From NCBI GenBank assembly GCA_963801605.1, contig CAWDFP010000007.1:288001-352000 (forward strand): 64,000 nucleotides of DNA, read 5' to 3'. The notes beneath the pieces are model-generated. The model was not told where the DNA came from, did not search any database, and worked only from the letters and a program-made list of their open reading frames with translations. Each line of letters begins with the position of its first letter. Within the stretch, counting starts at the first letter, position 1. The position numbers and the translations under genes were made by a program. This document shows positions 22,336-43,858 of the stretch, piece by piece. Source of the stretch: an uncultured candidate division Zixibacteria bacterium (GTDB lineage: Bacteria > Zixibacteria > MSB-5A5 > UBA10806).

Positions 22336-25247
22336 CTATTTCAACAGGAGCATCTTTTTGCTGGCGACGAAATCCGATGCCTGCAATCTATATAGATACA
22401 CGCCGCTGGCAAGCTCTATGCCAGCTTGACGGGAATCCCAAACAAGCGAATGCACCCCCGCATTCTGATTGGGCATCATGGTTTGATACACCAGCCGTCC
22501 GGCAATATCATATATGGAAAGGGTGACATCCGATTGCCCTGGGAAGCTGCATATGATATCTCGGTTCTTCCATTGAAGGGATTGGGATAGTTCGCGTTCA
22601 AGGCAAAACTCGTTGGCAGTCCGCTGTTCTGCCTATCGTCTACGGAAACATTATTGAAAGAATAAATTGTCAGATCGTCAACGCCGCCTTCGACTATGCT
22701 TCCAGCGCCCCTATCGGCCGCTGAGAACCGAAGCATTACCCTGGATCTCTGCGGAATTACCTGATCCACCAAAAATCTTGCCCTGGTCCAGCTGTTTGCC
22801 ATGGCAGTAACGATCTCGATTGGTACCCAGGTCTGGCCGCTGTCGCCCGAAATTTGCACTTCGAAAGTGTCATCGACGTTTCTGTTGGTGGCAAACCAGC
22901 GGAAATATTCTATCACGGGATTATCGTAGGAGGAAAGATCGTAATACGGAGTAGTTAGGCTTGTCTTGCCGCCGTCAACATCATTGGAGCCATTATTCGG
23001 ATCACCGATATCCTGTTGGCCGGTGATATAGCAGGAAGTCCCCGGCGCTGGCGTATGATCGTCCTCCGGTTGAAATGGCACATTAGGAAAGCTGTCTGCG
23101 AAAGTACCAACTGGATCGACTCGCACCCAAATGCCCGTAGTGGCATCGTCATCCGGTGTACCAACCACCCACCCGGATGATTGCTCCAGGCTATCGGCAA
23201 ATTGAGTGGTCAGCTGTCCCACAAAGAAAAAGTACGTAGGATTCGGCGCGGTTACCGGCGCGGATACAATACTACCCAACCGGTTCACGGCAGTTAAATA
23301 GTATTCCACCAGCGTTCCCAATGGTTGTGCCGGAATCGATCCGGCATATTCACCGGGATTGCCGGTTCGGATCATGTGAATACTCTGGAACGACCCGCTG
23401 TTTCCCGGCCTGTAATGGACAAACACTGAATCATCGTTTACAGGCGTGAATGTCGTACTCACTGTGGCATTTAAATTATATGGATGAGTTGTGTCAACGG
23501 TATCCCCCAGAGGATTATGACTAATGGACATTTGATCTGCGATGCTGATACCGTGAATATTGAAAGAGGTAGATATCTCGCTCCAGTGCGGAGTTCCGTT
23601 GAAAAGCGTATCGTCGTTGTCGTCGTATTCAAGTACGTCAATCAAATAATCGTCAAAATTGGATGATAACCCGTAACGGGCGTAATGGAACAGGGAATCG
23701 CAGTACCCGGTGCGAGGCGATAGCGCTTCCCTCAGATCCCAGAGCGCTCCCGAAATAATCAAACCATCGTTATGCGATTCGCCAGTCCAATCCTCAGGAT
23801 AACGATTGGTGTTGTCGACTGTCCTTAGATATTGATCAGGATTGCCAGAATAAAATCCTCGTCCGATAAGCGGTTGATTGGTAATTGTTGCGGCGGTGTA
23901 ATCCGACCAGCCCTCGTGTTCGGCTCCTGACGGTGCGCTTGGCCGATATTGATAATCAGTGATTCCATGCCCGTACTCATGATAGATCACATCGGCAATC
24001 TCTCCGGTATTGGAACAGCCGCCCCCCGCCATGAAAAAGTTTACCGAGGTGCCATCCCAGTACGCGTTACAGGTTTGATTTAGATTTACATTCGCACTAA
24101 GCGCAAAATCGAGATCGGTAAAATAGGGATCGATCGCTTTAATAAAATCATGTACCACATTCACCTGATAATACGCATTACGCTCATCGTTGCGCGATCT
24201 CGTAGAATCCCAGTTGACATACAGTGTCTCGCCGGGCGTGATTGTATCCGTAATCGCGGCCTGGGCGCCCTGGGCATTACGAACCGTAACGTAGCGGCCA
24301 ACCATTGTGATATTAATCCGGCGCGATGTTGAATCCGGTACATTAGCGCTGAAATATCCGCTGGAATTTGTATGCTGGGTTGTCAGACCGGAAATGCTTA
24401 CATTTTCAAATTCAAATGGACGGGTAACCAGAGTATCGAATGGCGTGGTAGGAAAAATCCGCCCGCTGATAAAACCGTCTACTGTATAATAATCTATAAG
24501 ATTCTTTCGATAAAGTATTTCGCCGGTCGTGGCATCGACGATAGTCATCCATCGGGCCGGCTGCTCGGTAACAACCTCGCCCAGATACCCCAGCCGATAG
24601 GAAAAACCGGTCTCAGTTGGAACCGGCAAAACTAACAACGATGGTTCGCTTGTTTCCTGAACGGAACTTACCAGTCCCATCGACATGGCATTTCTGGCGG
24701 CACCGGCTGAAATGCCCGGAGCCGGTGAAATCTCGATTCCCGGAAAATAGTCGCCTTGAAATAGAACGACATTACCCTGATCCGAAATTCTTACCGATAT
24801 CAGGTTTCCGAAAACGTCCACACCTTGATATTGCTGTTTGAAATCGACAAACCAGTGGTGACCACGGTGACGTGAATTAATATTAACCAGATCAGAAACG
24901 GGTATCTTCAACAAATCGGCGTTGGATTGAATAAATGAGAGAGCCAGCTCACGCGCCGATTCCTCGCTCTTGGGATCTCCCACATAAATTGCGCTGCCAT
25001 AAGCTCGATGAATCAACCCGGTCATGGTATTGAGCTGGCCGGCCCATTGACCGTGCCCCTTGACGAATGCGGACCATGACTGATCATTAATTGTCATCGG
25101 CCTGAGATTTGCCAGATAGATCGGGTCCTGATCGTAATAGGCGATTGTAACCGCCTGATCCGACGATCCCTCGAACGGCGTAAACGCGGCCGCGCTTGCA
25201 GCCATGCCAAGAATCGCCAGAAATATAAGAGCCCTTAGCTTCAGCAT
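22336..25247 (-). CDS. Secreted thermolysin-clan (M4/M36-like) metallopeptidase with propeptide and YPNPFN sorting domain; shifts near 22540
   Basis: NAYWDG, HEYGH, EGWSD, HNDG; removing 2 nt restores ...SDVTLSIYDIAGRLV...ASGVYLYRLQ...KKMLLLK* (stop 22336). Confidence 0.88.
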
Positions 25248-25387
25248 CTTTTCCTCCATTGCGGAATTGTCATATCTAAAACGCCTAACAAAAATCGAGG
25301 GTAAAAAATTCCATTATGTTTATAATACAATATTCGCAGTCAAATAAATACTTGATTTTTACTCCGTTCCCGATAATATTGTCCGCC

Positions 25388-29266: not shown

Positions 29267-29302
29267 GCCGAGGTTTCCTCTGAAACCTCGGTTTTTTATT
29301 TT
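29267..29302 (+). terminator. Rho-independent terminator
   Basis: gccgaggtttc/gaaacctcggt plus T-run. Confidence 0.85.
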
Positions 29303-29443: not shown

Positions 29444-32400
29444 TCATTCTTTCTTTTTCATCGCCAGAGGTCGAGCCGCGTCGGTTGCGGCGCCGATTTT
29501 TATTGCATAGCTTGTTTTGCGTTCGATATCGTAATCAGTGACAAAATAAACATCTAACAGCCCCCCTCGACGGTAACCGGTTTGAAGGAAATTCATTTGA
29601 TCCAAACACAGGCTCCAGCCTTCAAACCAAATCTTAAGCGCTTCGAATTGTGCATCACTTCCCTGAAAATGAACTAATAAATCAATATCACTCGATGGCA
29701 CTGCGGTGCCGGTCTTGGTGCTTCCGAACAGATACAGCCCCCTGACACCAAATCTTTCTGGCTCAAGTTGCGATGCCACATATTCGGCCATGTGTTGCCG
29801 CCAGCGCCAGTATACCTCGGATGTTGATTCTGAATATTTCCTCTTGGGCTCCGCTTTATCCTGACAGTTACGCGGCTGAGCAATCATTGCCATCGCTTCG
29901 CCAATGTCGGCGTTCATTAAAACCTGCAATACTCGCCCGCCGGTAGTAGCGGGCACATCGATCAGATGAATAATATCCATCAGATATGCAAATTCCGGAA
30001 TCATCTCCGGAAGTAAGTTGGGGGACGAAAGCAGGAATTCCTCATTGAATACACTTCCGGCGTCATCGGGATAAAGCGGCAAATATCGGATATTAGCCTC
30101 AACCAAATCCTGGAAAAAATGAGTCCCAAACGATAGATCGGGCACATAATGGCCGCTTTTCCTGGCCACCTCGATTAATACCGCGGTGTTGTTGATATCG
30201 GAATAGGTAACGCTCACTCCCAGCTTGATATCTCCCCTGCTCCCCCATCGGCCCGGTCCCATCAGAATAAATTGCCTTTTGGGAAGAAGCTTATTCAATT
30301 TGCTGACTGCTCGCCCCACGGCAATCAAAGTGGCATGATCGATTACCTCGTTGTATTTCTGTGGATCTACATAGACGATATGGGTAATATCGGGAACACG
30401 CCCATTAGAGACAAAACGGTTGGATGTGAATATTATCCTTTCCGGTGGAATATCGCGGGGAATCGGTAACGCCAGATTTTCGCCTGAGCTGCTCTGAGGA
30501 CGGCATTGCAGCAGATAGAAATCGGTCCCGTCGAATGCATATTCGATATCAACCGGCGTTTCCATCTTGTCTTCAAGCGTCTTGAGGATATTTTGCATGC
30601 GGGCCAAAAATTGCGTCCGCGAGAAAAGACCATCAAACGTGACCACCAAATCTTCAGGATTAAAATCGAGGTTAATTCCGGTGATGGACTGTAGATGATT
30701 ATCCTTTATCATCGAGAAAACCTGATTGAAGGCCGGATATTCGATTCCGCATTCCTCGATCAGTTTTGAAATTTCGAGAGTCTCGAATGAATTGGTCTCC
30801 AGATTTATAACGTCGATCTTTTTGGGAGAATAGCGGCTGATCTCTTCCGGAGTGATATTGACTCTCAGGCCCGGCTGACCTGGTGAAACTAAAATCGGAT
30901 AATCATCGCCCAGCCTGTCGACCGCGCGCGTGCCCAATCCCGGTACCAAACGCACCAGGCCGTCCTCGCGCTTGATACGCGGCGACCAGCGAAATTCGTT
31001 TTTGCTGAATGCCACCCCGGCATAGGCGGGCAGGAAATATTTCCCGACATACCGCCCCACCACTTCCTGAATCATGATTCCCATCTCTTCATGAAAATCA
31101 AGCAGGCCGCGCTCGGCGCGATACTCGATCGGATCGGGACCGAACACCGAGGCGTAAACCTCGGCGATGGCATCGAGAAGCGCGCCCAGACGCTCTTCCT
31201 TGAATCCCTGGTTGGCTAAGAATAAGCTCTTATATTTACCCGAGAAAGCCGCGCCGCTTCTATCTTCAAGAAGGCTCGAGCTCCTTACGATCAATGGCCT
31301 GTCTCCGAAATCATCGAGCGCCATCGAAAGCCCCTGAACCATTTCGACCGGAAACGTTGCATTCTTGAAAGTTTGCACGATATTGGGATATTCAACCCTG
31401 ACCTGAGAAATTTCCTTGTACTTTTGTTCGACAACTTCCTCGAAATTATTGACATTAACAAATGTCAATATCGCATCCGATGTGATATACCAGGTTTTGG
31501 GGACTTTGAAATCACCGATTAAAGCCTGGTCTTTGACAGTTTTCCTCAAAATCTGAGTCGCCAAAAATAATCCGGCGCTTTTCCCTCCAAGTTTGCCATA
31601 GCTGTCGGGAGTGAATACCACCTTCTGAACCAGATCGAAAAAGTCGCCCACGTCGATATATCTTTTGGCGATATTGATATATTCAAGCTGCTCCGAAAAG
31701 AATCGTCGAATCAGGGTGCCCAATACGCCGTCCTTAGTGGGTGACGGAATTTCGGCGCCGTCCGGCGAAATGCTGTGATAGCGGTTTATGGCCTCGACCA
31801 GATCGGCGATTGGCTTGTTAAGATCCACTACCGCCTTTAGCAGGAAACTGAGTTTATCCTGCTGAATCCATCTCTGGATAAAATTAAGAATTTCATCGGG
31901 AGTCAGATGATCGGCTGCAATCTTGAAAGTTTCATCGCTCAAAAATTCATTGGGTACAAGCGGCGCCCGCTTTCTATACGGTACGTTTCTATCGAGCAGG
32001 ATATCGCTGTCTGGTTCATTCTCCCCCGGCGTGTAATACTGCACCAGCTTTTGCGCATCCTCAACGCCTGTCCAGCAGAGATGATTCAGCATTTTATGAG
32101 AGATTCCCAAAAATAGAATCCTATCGGTTTTCCGCAGCAACTCCAATAGGATTTTCCATTCGGCCCTGTCATTGTCCAAAAGGACCTTTGTCGTTCCCTT
32201 GTGCTCCTTGAAAAGCTGTCGGATACGCTGGTAACCGATAAAGCTTCCCAGACGTTCGGCGATTGTTTCGAGCAGCTTGCTCTCCCCGCCAAGGAACGGC
32301 CCGTCCTCTTTGAATGGTACCTCCTGGGAATAATAGACATTGATACTGCCAACTTGTTTTTCGGATACCATGATGGCCGCGCTGTGCCCCCAGGCCGATT

Positions 32401-32632
32401 CGGCAAAACCCGGCGACGTGTATACCGCTTTATCTATAATTATCTGTACCTGGCATAATTCCGAAAATTGCCAGGCGGGAGGAATCGCCGATATTATTCC
32501 CCGACATACTACTGATAGATCGATATCGGGTTCGATCAGAAGCTCCTCTATCTTATAAAGGCACTCCAATTCTCTGGCTCTTTCCCGCAGAAACCAAAAC
32601 GAACTATCGAGCGGCTTTTTCGCGTCATCCAT
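29444..32632 (-). CDS. PEP-synthase/PPDK N-terminal (ATP-grasp) domain protein with N-terminal GAF-like and C-terminal nucleotidyltransferase domains
   Basis: LGGKSAGL, IVRSSSLLED, FSGKYKS, DIEYA, LLQCRP, SFGTHFF; C-terminal LFGSTKTGTAVPSSDIDLLV; ATG 32632 overlaps the upstream stop. Confidence 0.85.
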   Translation of the reverse strand: MDDAKKPLDSSFWFLRERARELECLYKIEELLIEPDIDLSVVCRGIISAIPPAWQFSELCQVQIIIDKAVYTSPGFAESAWGHSAAIMVSEKQVGSINVYYSQEVPFKEDGPFLGGESKLLETIAERLGSFIGYQRIRQLFKEHKGTTKVLLDNDRAEWKILLELLRKTDRILFLGISHKMLNHLCWTGVEDAQKLVQYYTPGENEPDSDILLDRNVPYRKRAPLVPNEFLSDETFKIAADHLTPDEILNFIQRWIQQDKLSFLLKAVVDLNKPIADLVEAINRYHSISPDGAEIPSPTKDGVLGTLIRRFFSEQLEYINIAKRYIDVGDFFDLVQKVVFTPDSYGKLGGKSAGLFLATQILRKTVKDQALIGDFKVPKTWYITSDAILTFVNVNNFEEVVEQKYKEISQVRVEYPNIVQTFKNATFPVEMVQGLSMALDDFGDRPLIVRSSSLLEDRSGAAFSGKYKSLFLANQGFKEERLGALLDAIAEVYASVFGPDPIEYRAERGLLDFHEEMGIMIQEVVGRYVGKYFLPAYAGVAFSKNEFRWSPRIKREDGLVRLVPGLGTRAVDRLGDDYPILVSPGQPGLRVNITPEEISRYSPKKIDVINLETNSFETLEISKLIEECGIEYPAFNQVFSMIKDNHLQSITGINLDFNPEDLVVTFDGLFSRTQFLARMQNILKTLEDKMETPVDIEYAFDGTDFYLLQCRPQSSSGENLALPIPRDIPPERIIFTSNRFVSNGRVPDITHIVYVDPQKYNEVIDHATLIAVGRAVSKLNKLLPKRQFILMGPGRWGSRGDIKLGVSVTYSDINNTAVLIEVARKSGHYVPDLSFGTHFFQDLVEANIRYLPLYPDDAGSVFNEEFLLSSPNLLPEMIPEFAYLMDIIHLIDVPATTGGRVLQVLMNADIGEAMAMIAQPRNCQDKAEPKRKYSESTSEVYWRWRQHMAEYVASQLEPERFGVRGLYLFGSTKTGTAVPSSDIDLLVHFQGSDAQFEALKIWFEGWSLCLDQMNFLQTGYRRGGLLDVYFVTDYDIERKTSYAIKIGAATDAARPLAMKKKE

Positions 32633-34361
32633 GATAAATAACTCCGCGTCCATGTGTGCCATCGATCTTCACCTGCAAAGGCGCTGTCAGCTTGATGTGG
32701 CGCACGTATGACGTTTCTTCTTTTGTCGGTTGTTTGCTCAACCAGTCCCAATCTATTTTATGCCCGGAATAATGCGGCAGCGAAAAATATCCTACTTGAG
32801 AACTTATGACGTTATGGAAAAAATGCGAGCCTTGCGACAGCTCTATATTCATATCGGGAAGCGACGCCTCCACGATAACCTTGGCGCCCGAAATTTGCCA
32901 CCAGTTTACCGGGATGCCAAACGGCGGATCAGTCGTCCCCAGCCGCCCGAACACAATCAGCAGATATTGCGACCCTCCGGCGATTAGCTGATGATTTATC
33001 GCCTCAAATTCTGACGCTATAATATGGCTTTCATTTTCGTTGAAACCGGCCTTCTTAAGATAAACCACGTCGGTGATATTATTCATGGCGCCGTTGCCAA
33101 GAGCATCCTCCGAGGCCAATAGAACATTCGGTTTTTCCAAATCCTCCATTTCAACCGTGACAACCGCACGCGAGACAAACATCGGACGAACTTGCAGCAG
33201 GCCGAAACGGCCGCCTCCTTCACCGTCGCTATTAAGTGTTACCGCAAACTCCATCTCGACCTGATGCCCCATTACATCTTCACACAACTTGAGAAGATTT
33301 TTTATGAGTTCGTTTAACGGTATTTCATCTAAATCGAGAATAGGAGCGAATGTCAATATTCGTGGCCCTCGGCCAGTCATACCGATAATCAGCCGGTCGT
33401 TTTGAAGATCGTAAGTCGAAACGAGATTATCCAGCACCCCATCTTTTTCTGCTTCAGACAGTTTGACATTGATAAGGTATTCTGTTTCTTTCATGGGATT
33501 ATATTCCGGCGGCTTTCCCATATTGACCGCCCAGAAATCGGTCTGGGTTGCTTTCATCATATCGCCCAGATTCTTATAAGGAGGAATGGCATTGGGATAC
33601 GCCGGCGAATAATTCCAGGTCTTGCCGCCATCGACCACCGTCTTGCCCAATCCCAACGCTAAATTAACGATACCATCCTCTGCTTTGGCATTCCCGGTAT
33701 GATAATAATTGTAGGATCGCGCTACGCCTGATATATGCGGATAAAAACGATCCCCTATTCGATTCCCCACAATCTCCTGTATTATCACCGCCATTCGTTC
33801 ATTTTCGACAGTTTGACCGGTGGTTTTTATATACTCTTTGGCCGCTTTGAAAAAAGTGGCGGCATAAACGAATTTTATCGCCTCTACGAGCGACCGGAAA
33901 CGAGCCTCGGGATCGTGCTGGTTGTTGGGGATCATCTTGGTTTCGTAGACACCGGCAAACGGCTCATGCATGGCGTCCTCAAAAAGGCTTGAGGAGCGAA
34001 TCGCCAGCGGATGATGAATCCTCTGGCTCAGAGCCCAGAGATCGCCCACGATATCGGCCGGTAGATCGGCTTTCAAAAACGGCAAAGAAATCTCTTCATC
34101 AGAGACATCGCTTAACGCCATATCATAAAGATTATTCTGCCGCATGAACTGTTCGAATACATCTGTGGCAATTACGGTCAGGGTGGGGATGCCCAGCGTC
34201 AGGCCGTGCAGCCCTTTGGGATCGATCTGGCTTACCAGAGCGTCTTTAATAAATGCCAGCCCCTGTGCTTTTCCGCCGATTGAACCGGAACCGATATATG
34301 AGAAAATGCCGCTTGAATCAACAAGCCGGCGATCGAATGGAGTGAGATTATTTATTGACAA
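32625..34361 (-). CDS. PEP-synthase/PPDK N-terminal (ATP-grasp) domain protein
   Basis: IGGKAQGL, AIRSSSLFED, FAGVYET, EMEFA, LLQVRP, SQGSHFF; no PEP-binding TIM barrel; GGAGG before TTG. Confidence 0.85.
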   Translation of the reverse strand: MSINNLTPFDRRLVDSSGIFSYIGSGSIGGKAQGLAFIKDALVSQIDPKGLHGLTLGIPTLTVIATDVFEQFMRQNNLYDMALSDVSDEEISLPFLKADLPADIVGDLWALSQRIHHPLAIRSSSLFEDAMHEPFAGVYETKMIPNNQHDPEARFRSLVEAIKFVYAATFFKAAKEYIKTTGQTVENERMAVIIQEIVGNRIGDRFYPHISGVARSYNYYHTGNAKAEDGIVNLALGLGKTVVDGGKTWNYSPAYPNAIPPYKNLGDMMKATQTDFWAVNMGKPPEYNPMKETEYLINVKLSEAEKDGVLDNLVSTYDLQNDRLIIGMTGRGPRILTFAPILDLDEIPLNELIKNLLKLCEDVMGHQVEMEFAVTLNSDGEGGGRFGLLQVRPMFVSRAVVTVEMEDLEKPNVLLASEDALGNGAMNNITDVVYLKKAGFNENESHIIASEFEAINHQLIAGGSQYLLIVFGRLGTTDPPFGIPVNWWQISGAKVIVEASLPDMNIELSQGSHFFHNVISSQVGYFSLPHYSGHKIDWDWLSKQPTKEETSYVRHIKLTAPLQVKIDGTHGRGVIYHG

Positions 34362-34481
34362 AGATCAGCCTCCAGGAAATGGAATTGTACCGCTTTCTTG
34401 CCTTAGCGGCACTGATTTATTTTACCGGAATAATCACTCTTGCCGCTTGATTATCCCGGAGATTCCAGCCTGCCCAAACAA

Positions 34482-34511
34482 TACCGGGGTCCATCCATAG
34501 GACCCCGGTAA
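34482..34511 (-). terminator. 11-bp hairpin between gdhA and the ATP-grasp genes
   Basis: taccggggtcc-atccata-ggaccccggta; only weak U-tract (ttgttt) on minus. Confidence 0.6.
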
Positions 34512-34550
34512 TAAATCAATAGAATTTCAAAAAAACAAACTGTTGAATTT

Positions 34551-35838
34551 CTATACCCAACCGCGATCCTTACAGGCTTGCGCAACACGGCTTACGGCAA
34601 CAAGATAGGCCGCATCCCTCATGTAAAGCTTGCGCTTGTCGGCCAGGTCCTTGACCGCATGGAACGCCGATGTCATCTTGACATCGAGCTTGCCCAGAAC
34701 CTCATCCTTTTCCCAGAAGTAGTTCATGTTGCTCTGAACCTGTTCGAAATAACTGCATGTCACGCCGCCGGCGTTTGCCAGGAAATCGGGAATGACGAAA
34801 ATGTTGCGTTCCTGAATTATCTTGTCTGCTTCAGGAGTGGTCGGACCATTAGCGCCCTCGGCAATGATCTTGACAGTCTTCTTAATCTTGCCGACATTCT
34901 CGCCGGTAATCTGGTTTTCGATTGCCGCCGGAATCAGGATATCAACATCCTGTTCAAGCCAGGCCTCGCCAGGAAGAATCTCGTAACCCATGCTCTTGGC
35001 TTTGTTCTTATCGATACCGCCGAAACGATCGGTAATCGTCAATAAGCGCGTTCGGATCAACGCCATCGTTCTTCTTGAACGAGTAAGATGTTTGATCGTT
35101 TTGATCCCAGCAGGATACGCAAATCACCTTACCGCCAATTTGCTGGTAAAGCCTGATAGCATACTGAGCCACATTGCCAAATCCCTGGACGCTGGCAGTT
35201 GTCTGATCCGGCTTGATACCCATTTCTCTCAGGGCCTCGCGAACGGTGTAGATAACGCCATATCCGGTAGCTTCCGTGCGACCCAGAGAGCCGCCCATGC
35301 CAACCGGCTTACCGGTGATCAGGCCGGGCATCTTCTGACCGTGAATGGCCTCATATTCATCGAGCATCCAGAGCATGTGCTGGGCGTTGGTCATAACGTC
35401 GGGAGCCGGAACGTCCGTATTGGGGCCAACATTTCTGGCCAGTTGACGAACCCAGCCGCGGCAGATTTGTTCTTGTTCCCTGGCGCTGAGATTATGCGGA
35501 TCGCAAATTACTCCGCCTTTGCTGCCGCCCAACGGAATATCGACTACCGAGCATTTCCAGGTCATCCACATGGAAAGCGCTCTGACCGTATCGATTGTCT
35601 CTTGCGGGTGGAAACGAATACCGCCCTTGCCCGGCCCTCTGGCGTCATTGTGCTGTACGCGGAAACCGCGGAAGATTTTGATTTTACCGTCATCCATGTG
35701 CACCGGGATGCTGAATTGATATTCTCTCATCGGATTGCGTAAAAGCTCCCTGGTGCCCTCATCGAGATTGAGAAATTCGGCCGCTTTGTCAAACTGCGTC
35801 TGAGCCATGACAAAGGGGTTAAAAGCCTTACTGCTCAT
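34551..35838 (-). CDS. gdhA: Glutamate dehydrogenase (Glu/Leu/Phe/Val family); frameshift near 35044
   Basis: [45 protein letters not shown]; 428 aa after deleting 1 nt. Confidence 0.9.
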
Positions 35839-36243
35839 CTATTTTCTCCCTTCAAAGACGTTAATATTGCTGATATTTTGAAGCTGTCATGCTGTGTCAT
35901 CGTTAACAGCAGACAATAGTAGTTAATTTCATATTGATGAATACATTCACCGATCAACTATCGTCAAGCTAAAAAGCTGCACAGCATCAAAATAAAATCA
36001 CCTTCACTTGTGAAAAAAATAACTTATTCGTCATTTTTTGTCAAGTAGATTACTAATATTATTCGGCTTTTTTCGCAATATCAAAATGGCTCCAAATACG
36101 TCTGGAACTTTAACGGATAGAATCTATAGTCTTATTCCTTTTAATGGGTTACAGCCAATAGCCAAAATTAGATTTTCGTCATATTTGGCCTCTATTTAAT
36201 TGCATTTCGATATTATTATCGAAACGCCCCATAATTTTTCCCT

Positions 36244-41534: not shown

Positions 41535-43005
41535 TTAACCTTTATAGGAGATGTCGGGTTCGCGCGCGGCTGCGGCCTCGTCAAGACGAGAAACCGGCGT
41601 GTTATGCGGCGCAGATCGAACTACTTCAGGATCTTTTTCAACTTCGTCCGCGATCTGAAGCATTAACTCGATATAATTATCGAGCGATGCTTTACTTTCG
41701 CTTTCGGTTGGTTCGATCATGATAGCCTCATGTACGATTAGAGGGAAATAAACCGTGGGCGAGTGCACCCCGAAATCCAGAATCCTCTTAGCGATATCGG
41801 CTGTCCTGGCTCCCATCGCTTTTTGTTTGCTTCCGGAAAGCACAAACTCATGCAATGTGCAGCCCGTATATGGCAGTTCATACCTGTGACGAAGCTTCTC
41901 GCGCATATAATTGGCATTGACGATAGCGGCTTCGGAAACTTCGCGCAAACCCGGCCCGCCCATCTGACGAATGTAGCAATAGGCGCGAATCAGGTTGGCT
42001 ATATTGCCGTAGAAGCTATGCACCGGACCGATCGAAAGCGGACGTTTATAATCAAGGAAATATACGGTCTTGCCCTTTTTATCCTCACGTTTGGAAATAA
42101 TCGGCGATGGCAAAAACGGCGCTAAATTGGATTTTACTCCCAGTGCGCCCGCGCCCGGTCCGCCGCCGCCATGCGGTGTGGAAAACGTTTTATGCATGTT
42201 AAAATGCATAATATCAAATCCGCTGTCGCCGGGACGAGTCAGCCCCAGTAAGGCGTTGAGGTTGGCGCCATCCATATATAGAAGCGCCCCGCAGCCATGC
42301 ACTAATTGAGCGATTTCCTTGATATCCGTTTCATACAAACCAAGCGTATTCGGATTGGTAATCATGAAGGCCGCCATATCGTCATTGCAGACTTCGGCCA
42401 ATTTCTGAAGATCAACCTTGCCCTCGGAATTGGATGGTATCTGTATGACTTCATATCCCGCCATTACTACCGATGCCGGATTCGTTCCATGCGCGGAATC
42501 GGGAAGTACCACTTTGGTTGGATTTCGCTTATTGTGCTCATGGTACGCACTTAATCATGAGGAGCGCTGTAAATTCGCCATGTGCACCGGCCACGGGCTG
42601 CATTGTTACGGCATCCATGCCGGAAATCTCCGCCAGCATAATCTGAAGCTCATCCAGCAGCTCCAGGGTGCCCTGCACCAGATGATCCGGGTAATGCGGA
42701 TGAGCCTCCGTGAATCCGGGAAGCCGCGCCAGGTTCTCATTGATTTTGGGATTGTACTTCATGGTACAGGAACCAAGCGGGTACATATGTTTGTCGATAT
42801 GATGGTTTTTGATTGAAAGCGCTATAAAGTGGCGCATAACCTCAGGCTCTGAAACCGATGGCAAATCAGCTGGTACCTTCCTCAGAAAATCCTGCGGAAT
42901 AACATCAGCCGCCGCCACTTCGGGGACATCCAGTTCGGGCAACGAGATGCCCTCGGTGCCGGAGGTGGAAAGATCGAAAATTAATTTATCGTACTCTAAA
43001 CTCAT
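41535..43005 (-). CDS. gcvPB: Glycine dehydrogenase (decarboxylating) subunit 2; frameshift near 42549
   Basis: YPLGSCTMKYNP, QPVAGAHGE, SAHGTNPAS, HFNMHKTFSTPHGGGGPG; junction aag [t] gcg tac. Confidence 0.92.
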
Positions 43006-43858
43006 TGTTTCTCCTCCAAGTCGGCCAAACGTTTCTGAACCCACTGGTTTCGGCCTTCCGGGTATTTTTGCAAATAATCTCTATACAAAACCAACGCGCC
43101 TTTTTCATCACCTGATAAAGCCGTGTAATAACCGAGCATGGCGCTGGCGTCATCGGCCTCCCGTGACGTTGGGTATTTTGTGATAATATCCTGGCAGGTG
43201 GCGATAGCGGTTTTATAATCCTTTGATTCCGCTTGAGCCATCGATATTCCCTTCCAGGATCGTGAGGCGTAACCCCGTCGATTCTCAGGATCAAGCGCGA
43301 TAACTCTGATGGTAAAATTCTATGGCGCTTGCGATATTGTGTTCGTCCCAAATATTTTCCTGCAATAGTTAAAAGATATTCAGGATTATCCGGCTCATCC
43401 TCTAAGCGAGTCAGGTAATCTTCCAAAGTCTCTTTGCCCTGCAGGAAAAGATGTACCTGATTGTAGAATTCCGTGGCATCCATGTATCCTTCGATACGAT
43501 CAATCTCCGCGCCATCCGATTTTGCAATCACAGTGGTGGGATAGCCTGTTATCCCGAACCTTTCCGCCAACGCAGATTCAGTTTCGGCGTCGATTCTTAC
43601 GAAGATAAAATCGTTGGCCATCGAGATGATCAACGAATCCGCGAATGTAAGCGTATCGAAATCCTGGCAGTGTTGACACCAACTGGTATCGGCATAGAAT
43701 TCGATTATAAGCGGTAACTTGGCTTGAGCGGCCTGGCTTCTGGCGGTTTCAAAATCGTGCAGGAATGTAATCTGAGATGGGAGCGGCTTTGATTTTAACT
43801 GACAGCCGGCCGTCATAGCCAAAACCACCAGCATTAAAAATAAAGCTATCCGCTTCAT
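43002..43858 (-). CDS. Thioredoxin-fold + TPR lipoprotein; two shifts near 43310-43330
   Basis: Lipobox TAGC; WCQHC; GYPT; TPR-like C-terminus (KAIEFY.RVIALDP; YLQKYPEG) after removing 2 nt. Confidence 0.75.

Follow-up and report, generated by a model that had tools for sequence, protein, structure and literature searches.

We analysed a 64,000-nucleotide window (positions 288,001 to 352,000 of contig CAWDFP010000007.1, assembly GCA_963801605.1) from an uncultured Zixibacteria bacterium; all positions given below are those of this window. Its minus strand carries gdhA, encoding a glutamate dehydrogenase (GDH), then a short and finally a long dikinase-like paralogue, the latter as a 1072-codon frame (32662–29444). 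Order, strand and overlap of the genes are as described in the initial annotation, which had proposed that the paralogues are not phosphoenolpyruvate (PEP) synthases and may covalently modify GDH. We use "family" for the long (L-type) and short (S-type) dikinase-like paralogues together. The genes and their domains are:

34551..35838, minus strand: gdhA, Glu/Leu/Phe/Val dehydrogenase of a 428-residue clade closest to NCBIfam GdhA_Arch (from family searches and the intact frames of relatives)
32625..34361, minus strand: short paralogue (S-type), 578 residues, TTG start; PPDK_N ATP-grasp domain (residues 27–400) and HFF domain (401–578)
32823..32825, minus strand: His513 of the short protein (SQGSHFF), candidate phospho-carrier
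29444..32632, minus strand: long paralogue (L-type), likely start Met11, 1062 residues (open frame from 32662)
32228..32605, minus strand: GAF sensor domain of the long protein, residues ~20–145 (best match 3cit, Z 13.3, root-mean-square deviation (rmsd) 2.0, 123 aligned residues)
31628..32185, minus strand: all-helical domain of the long protein, residues ~160–345, from the structure model
30476..31594, minus strand: PPDK_N ATP-grasp domain of the long protein, residues 357–729, with catalytic-type K361, R460, E707, Q719 and R721 present
29873..30457, minus strand: HFF domain of the long protein, residues ~736–930, predicted swivelling beta/beta/alpha fold with GPGRWGS and SFGTHFFQDL
30119..30121, minus strand: His848 of the long protein, at a helix start in the model, candidate phospho-carrier
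29447..29815, minus strand: minimal Pol-beta-type nucleotidyltransferase of the long protein, with G980, S981, D992, D994 and D1037

Both paralogues match Pfam PPDK_N (E 1e–58 and 9e–37) and are 27% identical to each other over 563 columns. The PEP-synthase/PPDK ATP-grasp motifs previously read in them are present: GGKS359, RSSS460, ED466, DIEYA705 and LQCRP718 in the long protein, which continues with SFGTHFF844 (His848) and GSTKTGTAVPSSDID980, and GGKA29, RSSS122, EMEFA369, LQVRP389 and SQGSHFF509 (His513) in the short one. Among solved structures, the ATP-grasp domain is nearest to RPH. No Pfam match to the PEP/pyruvate barrel or to a PEP-utilizer family was found in either paralogue at E < 0.1, in agreement with the earlier reading, and the short chain ends right after the HFF domain. 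Scores against NCBIfam PEP synthase models reach 55 bits versus cut-offs of 598–740 (less than one tenth) and against the RPH model 40 bits versus 999; weak NCBIfam matches involve RPH, PigC and RedH. As had been anticipated, public sources label relatives "pyruvate, water dikinase" or "PEP/pyruvate-binding domain protein". Because the barrel is missing and the NCBIfam scores fall far under the cut-offs, the sequences indicate that the two paralogues are not PEP synthases, and the corresponding false steps should leave metabolic models of organisms with the family.

The HFF domain, which ends the short chain and follows the ATP-grasp domain in the long one, is by sequence a new domain of this family with a near-invariant histidine. 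This residue is present in all aligned rows of three sets (74/74, with rows picked partly for the motif, 58/58 and 11/11) and in 27 of 28 S-type rows, and the motif occurs in 283 of 290 cores from all loci. Beyond the histidine helix, N790, G804, R805, G807 and E831 are invariant. The domain was modelled with a predicted local distance difference test score (pLDDT) of 94.5. In a wide fold search, the top eight matches to the model include a PPDK phosphoryl-carrier domain (first, Z 5.8), the pyruvate-kinase swivel domain (5.6), RPH (5.4) and maize PPDK and Enzyme I (5.1). Five of the eight are phospho-His swivel domains, with modest scores (Z 5.1–5.8, rmsd 3.3–3.8, 107–122 aligned residues); the N-domain of EI-Ntr scores 4.5. 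The helix-then-strand order after the histidine also resembles canonical swivel domains. An HFF-centred profile run against sequences of solved structures matched in the ATP-grasp part only, and in the ESM Atlas the domain matched only clusters that are unnamed or mis-named. We consider the HFF histidine a probable phospho-carrier candidate.

The N-terminal part of the long protein (residues 15–352) was modelled with a pLDDT of 84 as a GAF fold over the first 140 residues, followed by helices. The structure search bears out the GAF-like character suggested earlier: Foldseek gives the region a probability of 1.0 (though E is about 0.01), and the GAF domain of PtsP is among its matches (Z 11.4). 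Histidine kinases of this genome (G000 C7:75273 and C11:183976) and of loci L050, L071 and L080 carry the same GAF subtype (ERxKELxCLY...WQYP...GPFLxEE), for which Pfam has no model. Fold matches to this model did not cover the helical domain (160–345), a candidate docking or dimer domain. At the other end of the chain, the GS-x10-DxD motif does belong to a Pol-beta-type nucleotidyltransferase, with matches to Pfam NTP_transf_2/Polbeta (PF01909, 34 bits versus a cut-off of 21) and all three aspartates in place. G980, S981, D992, D994 and D1037 are conserved in 34–35 of 36–37 aligned rows, and the motif is intact in 124 of 137 loci. No Pfam or NCBIfam match to HD, removase or ACT domains, or at GlnD/GlnE family level, was found in the long protein.

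We then asked how the family is distributed, as the initial annotation had suggested a survey of gdh linkage. A GTDB scan confirmed 383 relatives, the best 80 of which were analysed; they span Zixiibacteriota, Ignavibacteria, Aminicenantes, KSB1, Calditrichia, Spirochaetaceae, Fibrobacteraceae, Planctomycetota and others. A gdh gene lies within 5.5 kb in 59 of the 63 loci having at least 4.5 kb of upstream DNA (70/80 overall), compared with a chance of about 1.2% for a gdh neighbour in this genome. In metagenomes, where 80 of 593 matching loci were analysed, 30 of 37 with enough upstream DNA have gdh nearby. Distant members behave similarly: gdh is present in 18 of 22 Bacteroidota-type regions (four loci of the window's type left out) and near 10 of 15 Spirochaetota genes (from 16 regions, two of which hold halves of one gene; the L014 locus left out). 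In Parabacteroides distasonis a receiver-type gene diverges from gdhA and lies 3.5 kb downstream of another gdh, and the arrangement in Phocaeicola massiliensis is similar. Between the dikinase and the second gdh of P. distasonis (L201:6749–9960) stand genes whose annotations read EEP phosphatase, nucleotidyltransferase family protein and RapZ.

The family comprises 1,018 clusters at 50% identity (E < 1e–30). A FastTree phylogeny of 112 representative cores has two deep branches, L (S[FY]GTHFFQDL) and S (SQG[ST]HFF), and both are gdh-linked. N-termini are GAF, receiver or KaiC-like domains (the last label comes from reading the sequences, with no Pfam match), and S-type proteins often have receivers. 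Swapped N-terminal sensors are typical of signalling enzymes. Natural S–L fusions occur in four distinct 50%-identity clusters; the three that we looked up are single-member clusters, and the fusions may therefore be read-through artefacts.

Linkage is also held at the level of whole genomes. Among 70 genomes of this phylum, the sampled ones of highest quality (the window's own genome excluded), an L-type protein and this GDH clade occur together in 38 genomes, the dikinase alone in 0, the GDH alone in 1 and neither in 31. The thresholds were set by us (E ≤ 1e–200 for L-type, E ≤ 1e–170 for the GDH clade), and related genomes are not independent. With one genome per genus the counts are 24/0/0/25, and within the largest family 16/0/1/13. 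Ten of 30 gdh loci lack a family gene within 1.5 kb, yet the link persists genome-wide: in G016 dikinase and gdh are 258 kb apart, and in G010, G057 and G060 they are on different contigs. Seven of the 31 negative genomes have weaker family matches; the five that were checked all encode a receiver-type S protein, four of them with another GDH clade nearby. For 19 gdh/receiver-type pairs, two GDH isoenzyme clades match two dikinase clades, with clade b supported at 100 in both trees (the dikinase tree is a quick version). Co-duplication explains matching trees, but both pairs are retained in four genomes (G303, G299, G239 and G287), which suggests that the GDH and dikinase clades are cognate partners. 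Residues H115, H154, Y252, T269, Y285 and Y411 are specific to this GDH clade only. Residues 240–255 of the L003 GDH hold a clade-specific WDQxDQxSY with the conserved Tyr252, with no counterpart in the other aligned GDHs.

Another gene follows the same genomes. A calcineurin-like metallophosphoesterase (PF00149; e.g. L007:2443–3303), often away from the cassette, is present in 25 of 38 L-type genomes versus 0 of 32 others. It adjoins 61 of 109 nucleotidyltransferase-bearing loci versus 0 of 31 without the nucleotidyltransferase. Its subfamily has no NCBIfam match. We regard it as a candidate eraser of the nucleotidyl group.

At some loci gdh's upstream place is taken by a glutamate-synthase-like flavoprotein operon, consisting of NuoE-like, NuoF–GltD fusion and NuoG-like genes and a stand-alone 527-residue glutamate-synthase-like FMN/Fe-S protein (PF01645; L104:29–6353, G000 C6:19331–24755). 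No solved-structure relative of the 527-residue protein was found. The operon occurs in 86 of 201 genomes of the phylum with an identity of about 80%, and often lies near a gdh gene. We dropped this protein as a second target because its genome-level co-occurrence with L-type is at chance (11/27/9/23 in the 70 genomes, odds ratio 1.04). Of 20 systematically picked copies in this phylum, six have a full L gene adjacent (five already known; 1 of 15 newly fetched, with fragments at two more), as do 0 of 9 in another phylum, and the copy in this genome stands alone. We read the adjacency as relocation within nitrogen gene clusters. L copies beside the operon have lost the histidine in 6 of 12 cases, all in one fast-evolving clade (L107–L112). 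These mostly keep the GAF domain and the nucleotidyltransferase motif, and the nucleotidyltransferase can therefore be retained independently of the histidine; by sequence, this clade is possibly a pseudo-dikinase or sensor-nucleotidyltransferase. Elsewhere (L193:1984–9362, L191:612–5861) a KaiC/RecA-like member stands directly upstream of a related glutamate-synthase-like gene, followed by amidotransferases or NrpR.

We compared the family with known systems. GlnE and GlnD run nucleotidylation cascades in which a Pol-beta domain controls nitrogen proteins (glutamine synthetase and PII). The Pol-beta GS..DxD..D motif tied to a nitrogen enzyme and a co-inherited candidate eraser are alike here, whereas the present domain is minimal, lacks HD and ACT and is fused to a dikinase, the candidate eraser is calcineurin-like and the proposed target is GDH. 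EI-Ntr (PtsP) has a role in nitrogen signalling and shares, by structural matches, the GAF sensor and possibly the phospho-His swivel; here, however, the proposed donor is ATP via the ATP-grasp domain and not PEP, and neither a barrel nor an HPr-binding domain is among the Pfam matches. With PEP synthase and PPDK the family has in common PPDK_N with the GGK, RSS, E and QxR catalytic motifs and possibly the swivel fold predicted for the HFF domain, but neither the barrel, nor the GGxTSH motif, nor comparable model scores. Multi-component dikinases are a further group: HpeHI is a two-component dikinase for which the canonical swivel motif T/SxxGGxxxH was defined, with CreHI and PpsAB alike (PMC12167813). 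Together with RPH they resemble the family in having an ATP-grasp domain as well as in a modest C-terminal swivel match. As to differences, the short protein lacks a substrate domain and none is recognisable in the long one, whose fold matches leave the helical domain uncovered; ATP-grasp and histidine share one chain, while in HpeHI the histidine is with the substrate domain. The closest parallel is VadK (Rv1127c), an ATP-binding plus His-domain truncation of PPDK that phosphorylates itself on His422; binding to methylcitrate synthase is the proposed way in which it regulates that enzyme (PMC13400623). Compared by architecture and description, both are truncated PPDK relatives of ATP-binding and His domains without a barrel, with proposed direct tuning of a metabolic enzyme. 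The differences are a sequence-unrelated HFF His domain, two paralogues, sensors, nucleotidyltransferase, phosphoesterase and GDH as partner. The family probably works like a VadK-type regulatory dikinase, yet on the features tested it fits no defined family.

No paper on the family was found in the literature searched, which consisted of listings and the starts of abstracts, with subscription papers largely outside its scope. A preprint on P. gingivalis gdhA and the Bfu paper gave no matches to the terms searched. Nor did this literature contain a dedicated covalent switch for bacterial GDH; supplementary proteomic tables, which could hold GDH modification data, were outside its scope. The family is real and widespread, and apparently undescribed.

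Overall, we suggest, with a probability of roughly 0.55, that the two paralogues form a sensor-gated histidine dikinase/nucleotidyltransferase switch controlling the cognate GDH encoded next to them. We infer all chemical steps, with GDH as the favoured acceptor. The ATP-grasp domain would phosphorylate His848 or His513 in a dikinase reaction that turns ATP into AMP, as PPDK, RPH and VadK do. The swivel domain would then dock on GDH and either hand over the phosphate or change activity by binding, the latter resembling the proposal for VadK and methylcitrate synthase. The GAF domain may read a nitrogen or carbon metabolite, with receiver or KaiC-like domains in its place in other subfamilies. 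As an optional second layer, the nucleotidyltransferase might attach a nucleotidyl group to GDH or to the dikinases and the phosphoesterase take it off again. The L and S paralogues may act as a pair.

Several observations weigh against this switch. Binding or modification of GDH is itself a prediction from genes and models. Cassette transfer and shared descent inflate both co-occurrence and tree congruence. The family pairs with GDH clades that are only ~37% identical, and in the GDH alignment no Ser, Thr, Tyr or His is both specific to and common to the dikinase-linked clades. Members without gdh nearby exist (6/37 metagenome loci, 5/15 Spirochaetota genes, 4/22 Bacteroidota-type regions, Prevotella F0039 with none within 5 kb, and G039). 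The nucleotidyltransferase motif is absent from 13 of 137 such domains, many members have no nucleotidyltransferase at all, and no phosphoesterase homologue was found in this genome (87% complete), whose gdhA is also frameshifted. As to the HFF domain, all Z-scores are below 8, a range that according to the tool may reflect a common arrangement, and swivel proteins without phosphotransfer match equally well (DRTGG 5.6, cyclases 5.0–5.2). Foldseek gave no match to the model at E < 0.001. The canonical T/SxxGGxxxH motif is absent (the HFF motif being S[FQ]G[TS]HFF), as is any PF00391 match. In profile-profile alignment (hhalign), 23 canonical swivel domains gave no match (E 0.24), and the reversed and N-terminal controls were negative too. 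For the earlier proposal of a divergent phospho-carrier histidine, the best fold matches of the domain, which are phospho-His swivel domains, speak in favour and the profile comparison against.

Other explanations have to be weighed against the switch. GDH could be the substrate-binding subunit of a multi-component dikinase, in which the phospho-His activates a GDH-bound intermediate (2-oxoglutarate or its carbinolamine) and drives reductive amination at low ammonia, or yields a new phosphorylated metabolite. Cognate pairing and co-occurrence are equally expected of a partner subunit, no common surface site on distant GDH clades would be required, and some members adjoin the glutamate-synthase-like flavoprotein, which would presumably have the imine intermediate in common. 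That neighbour, however, has no genome-level link and its adjacent L copies are mostly His-less. The hairpin after gdhA (see below) would suggest unequal expression of the supposed subunits, and the swapped sensors, nucleotidyltransferase and phosphoesterase are left unexplained. Dikinases split into ATP-grasp and substrate-binding parts are known (HpeHI, CreHI, PpsAB), but in these the His domain goes with the substrate-binding part and not with the ATP-grasp part (PMC12167813). We consider ATP coupling of this kind unlikely. A relay of nitrogen status to some other target, with phosphate passed between the paralogues or on to receiver domains, a transcription factor or a phosphotransferase-system-like partner, as in EI-Ntr, and with GDH perhaps as sensing partner, also appears rather improbable. 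The GAF and His-swivel matches recall EI-Ntr, the GAF subtype recurs in histidine kinases, S-type proteins often have receivers, KaiC-like members have genes for nitrogen assimilation around them, NrpR and amidotransferases among these, and orphan members exist. Yet one dikinase clade per GDH isoenzyme clade points to GDH itself, and the loci read showed no regulator gene that accompanies the cassette (the screen of all loci covered gdh, the glutamate-synthase-like gene, the phosphoesterase and family domains).

A stand-alone RPH- or PigC-like kinase or ligase of a glutamate side pathway, supplied with substrate by gdh, would account for the weak NCBIfam matches to RPH, PigC and RedH. Its substrate could sit in extra loops of the HFF domain, where the invariant N790, G804, R805, G807 and E831 could line a pocket, or in the helical domain, which has no assigned fold. 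But the short chain is too small to hold a substrate domain, further enzymes of such a pathway were not seen to recur, and duplication with each GDH isoenzyme is unexpected for an enzyme acting on a metabolite; we hold this for quite improbable. Least credible, and very improbable, is that the paralogues are a normal PEP synthase or PPDK, or that they ride along in a mobile nitrogen cassette and are functionally unconnected to GDH: the source annotations of relatives speak for it, while the missing barrel, the scores far under cut-offs and co-retention that outlasts gene separation speak against it.

Bacterial GDH links carbon and nitrogen metabolism. If the sensor-gated switch operates on it, dikinase chemistry would be extended to enzyme control beyond VadK and a new phospho-His domain family defined. 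The title of an article by Baggio and Morrison (1996; PMID 8955404), seen in a reference list, reportedly refers to unidentified trans-acting gene(s) downstream of Bacteroides gdhA. As the family reaches gut Bacteroidales, a lead worth following is that the receiver-type member corresponds to the trans-acting gene(s); the switch would then supply a named, deletable candidate. A more elaborate form is a "protein, water dikinase" cascade, in which L and S phosphorylate bacterial GDH via beta-phosphate and phospho-His, nucleotidyltransferase and phosphoesterase provide a second reversible modification, and the receiver-type member is the trans-acting gene of 1996. We offer it tentatively, as possible rather than probable; it would add a third system of covalent nitrogen control to those of GlnE and GlnD, ranging from sediment anaerobes to gut Bacteroidales.

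The gene models of the initial annotation hold as to position, with two amendments. gdhA is split in this assembly by one frameshift near 35041–35045; its two parts are 87% identical to an intact 428-residue relative, and frames in relatives are intact and mostly of that length. Because further genes of the assembly are split likewise (NuoF-like genes on contig C6), the frameshift is likely an assembly error. For the long gene, Met11 (32632) is the most likely start, in which case it is coupled to the stop of the short gene and encodes 1062 and not 1072 residues: this start has an 8-nucleotide overlap with that stop and GGAG upstream, and many of the closest relatives begin aligning at about residue 9–11. 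Three further features frame the genes:

36016..36044, minus strand: closest match to a sigma70-like promoter upstream of gdhA, TTGACA-17-TATTTT (by consensus only)
34482..34510, minus strand: hairpin of 11 pairs between gdhA and the short gene, G+C-rich with a weak T tail
29267..29292, no strand assigned: hairpin with a terminator-like score on both strands, between the long gene and a convergent transglutaminase-like gene

The hairpin 3' of gdhA may, as its sequence suggests, lower read-through into the short gene. The transglutaminase-like gene (PF01841, 27587–29236) is convergent with the cassette and has the two-way terminator-like hairpin in common with it. At 22476–25259 and 41535–43044 more genes, including a secreted peptidase-like one and one that we take to be glycine-cleavage P-like, are apparently split or shortened by frameshifts, fitting an indel-rich assembly.

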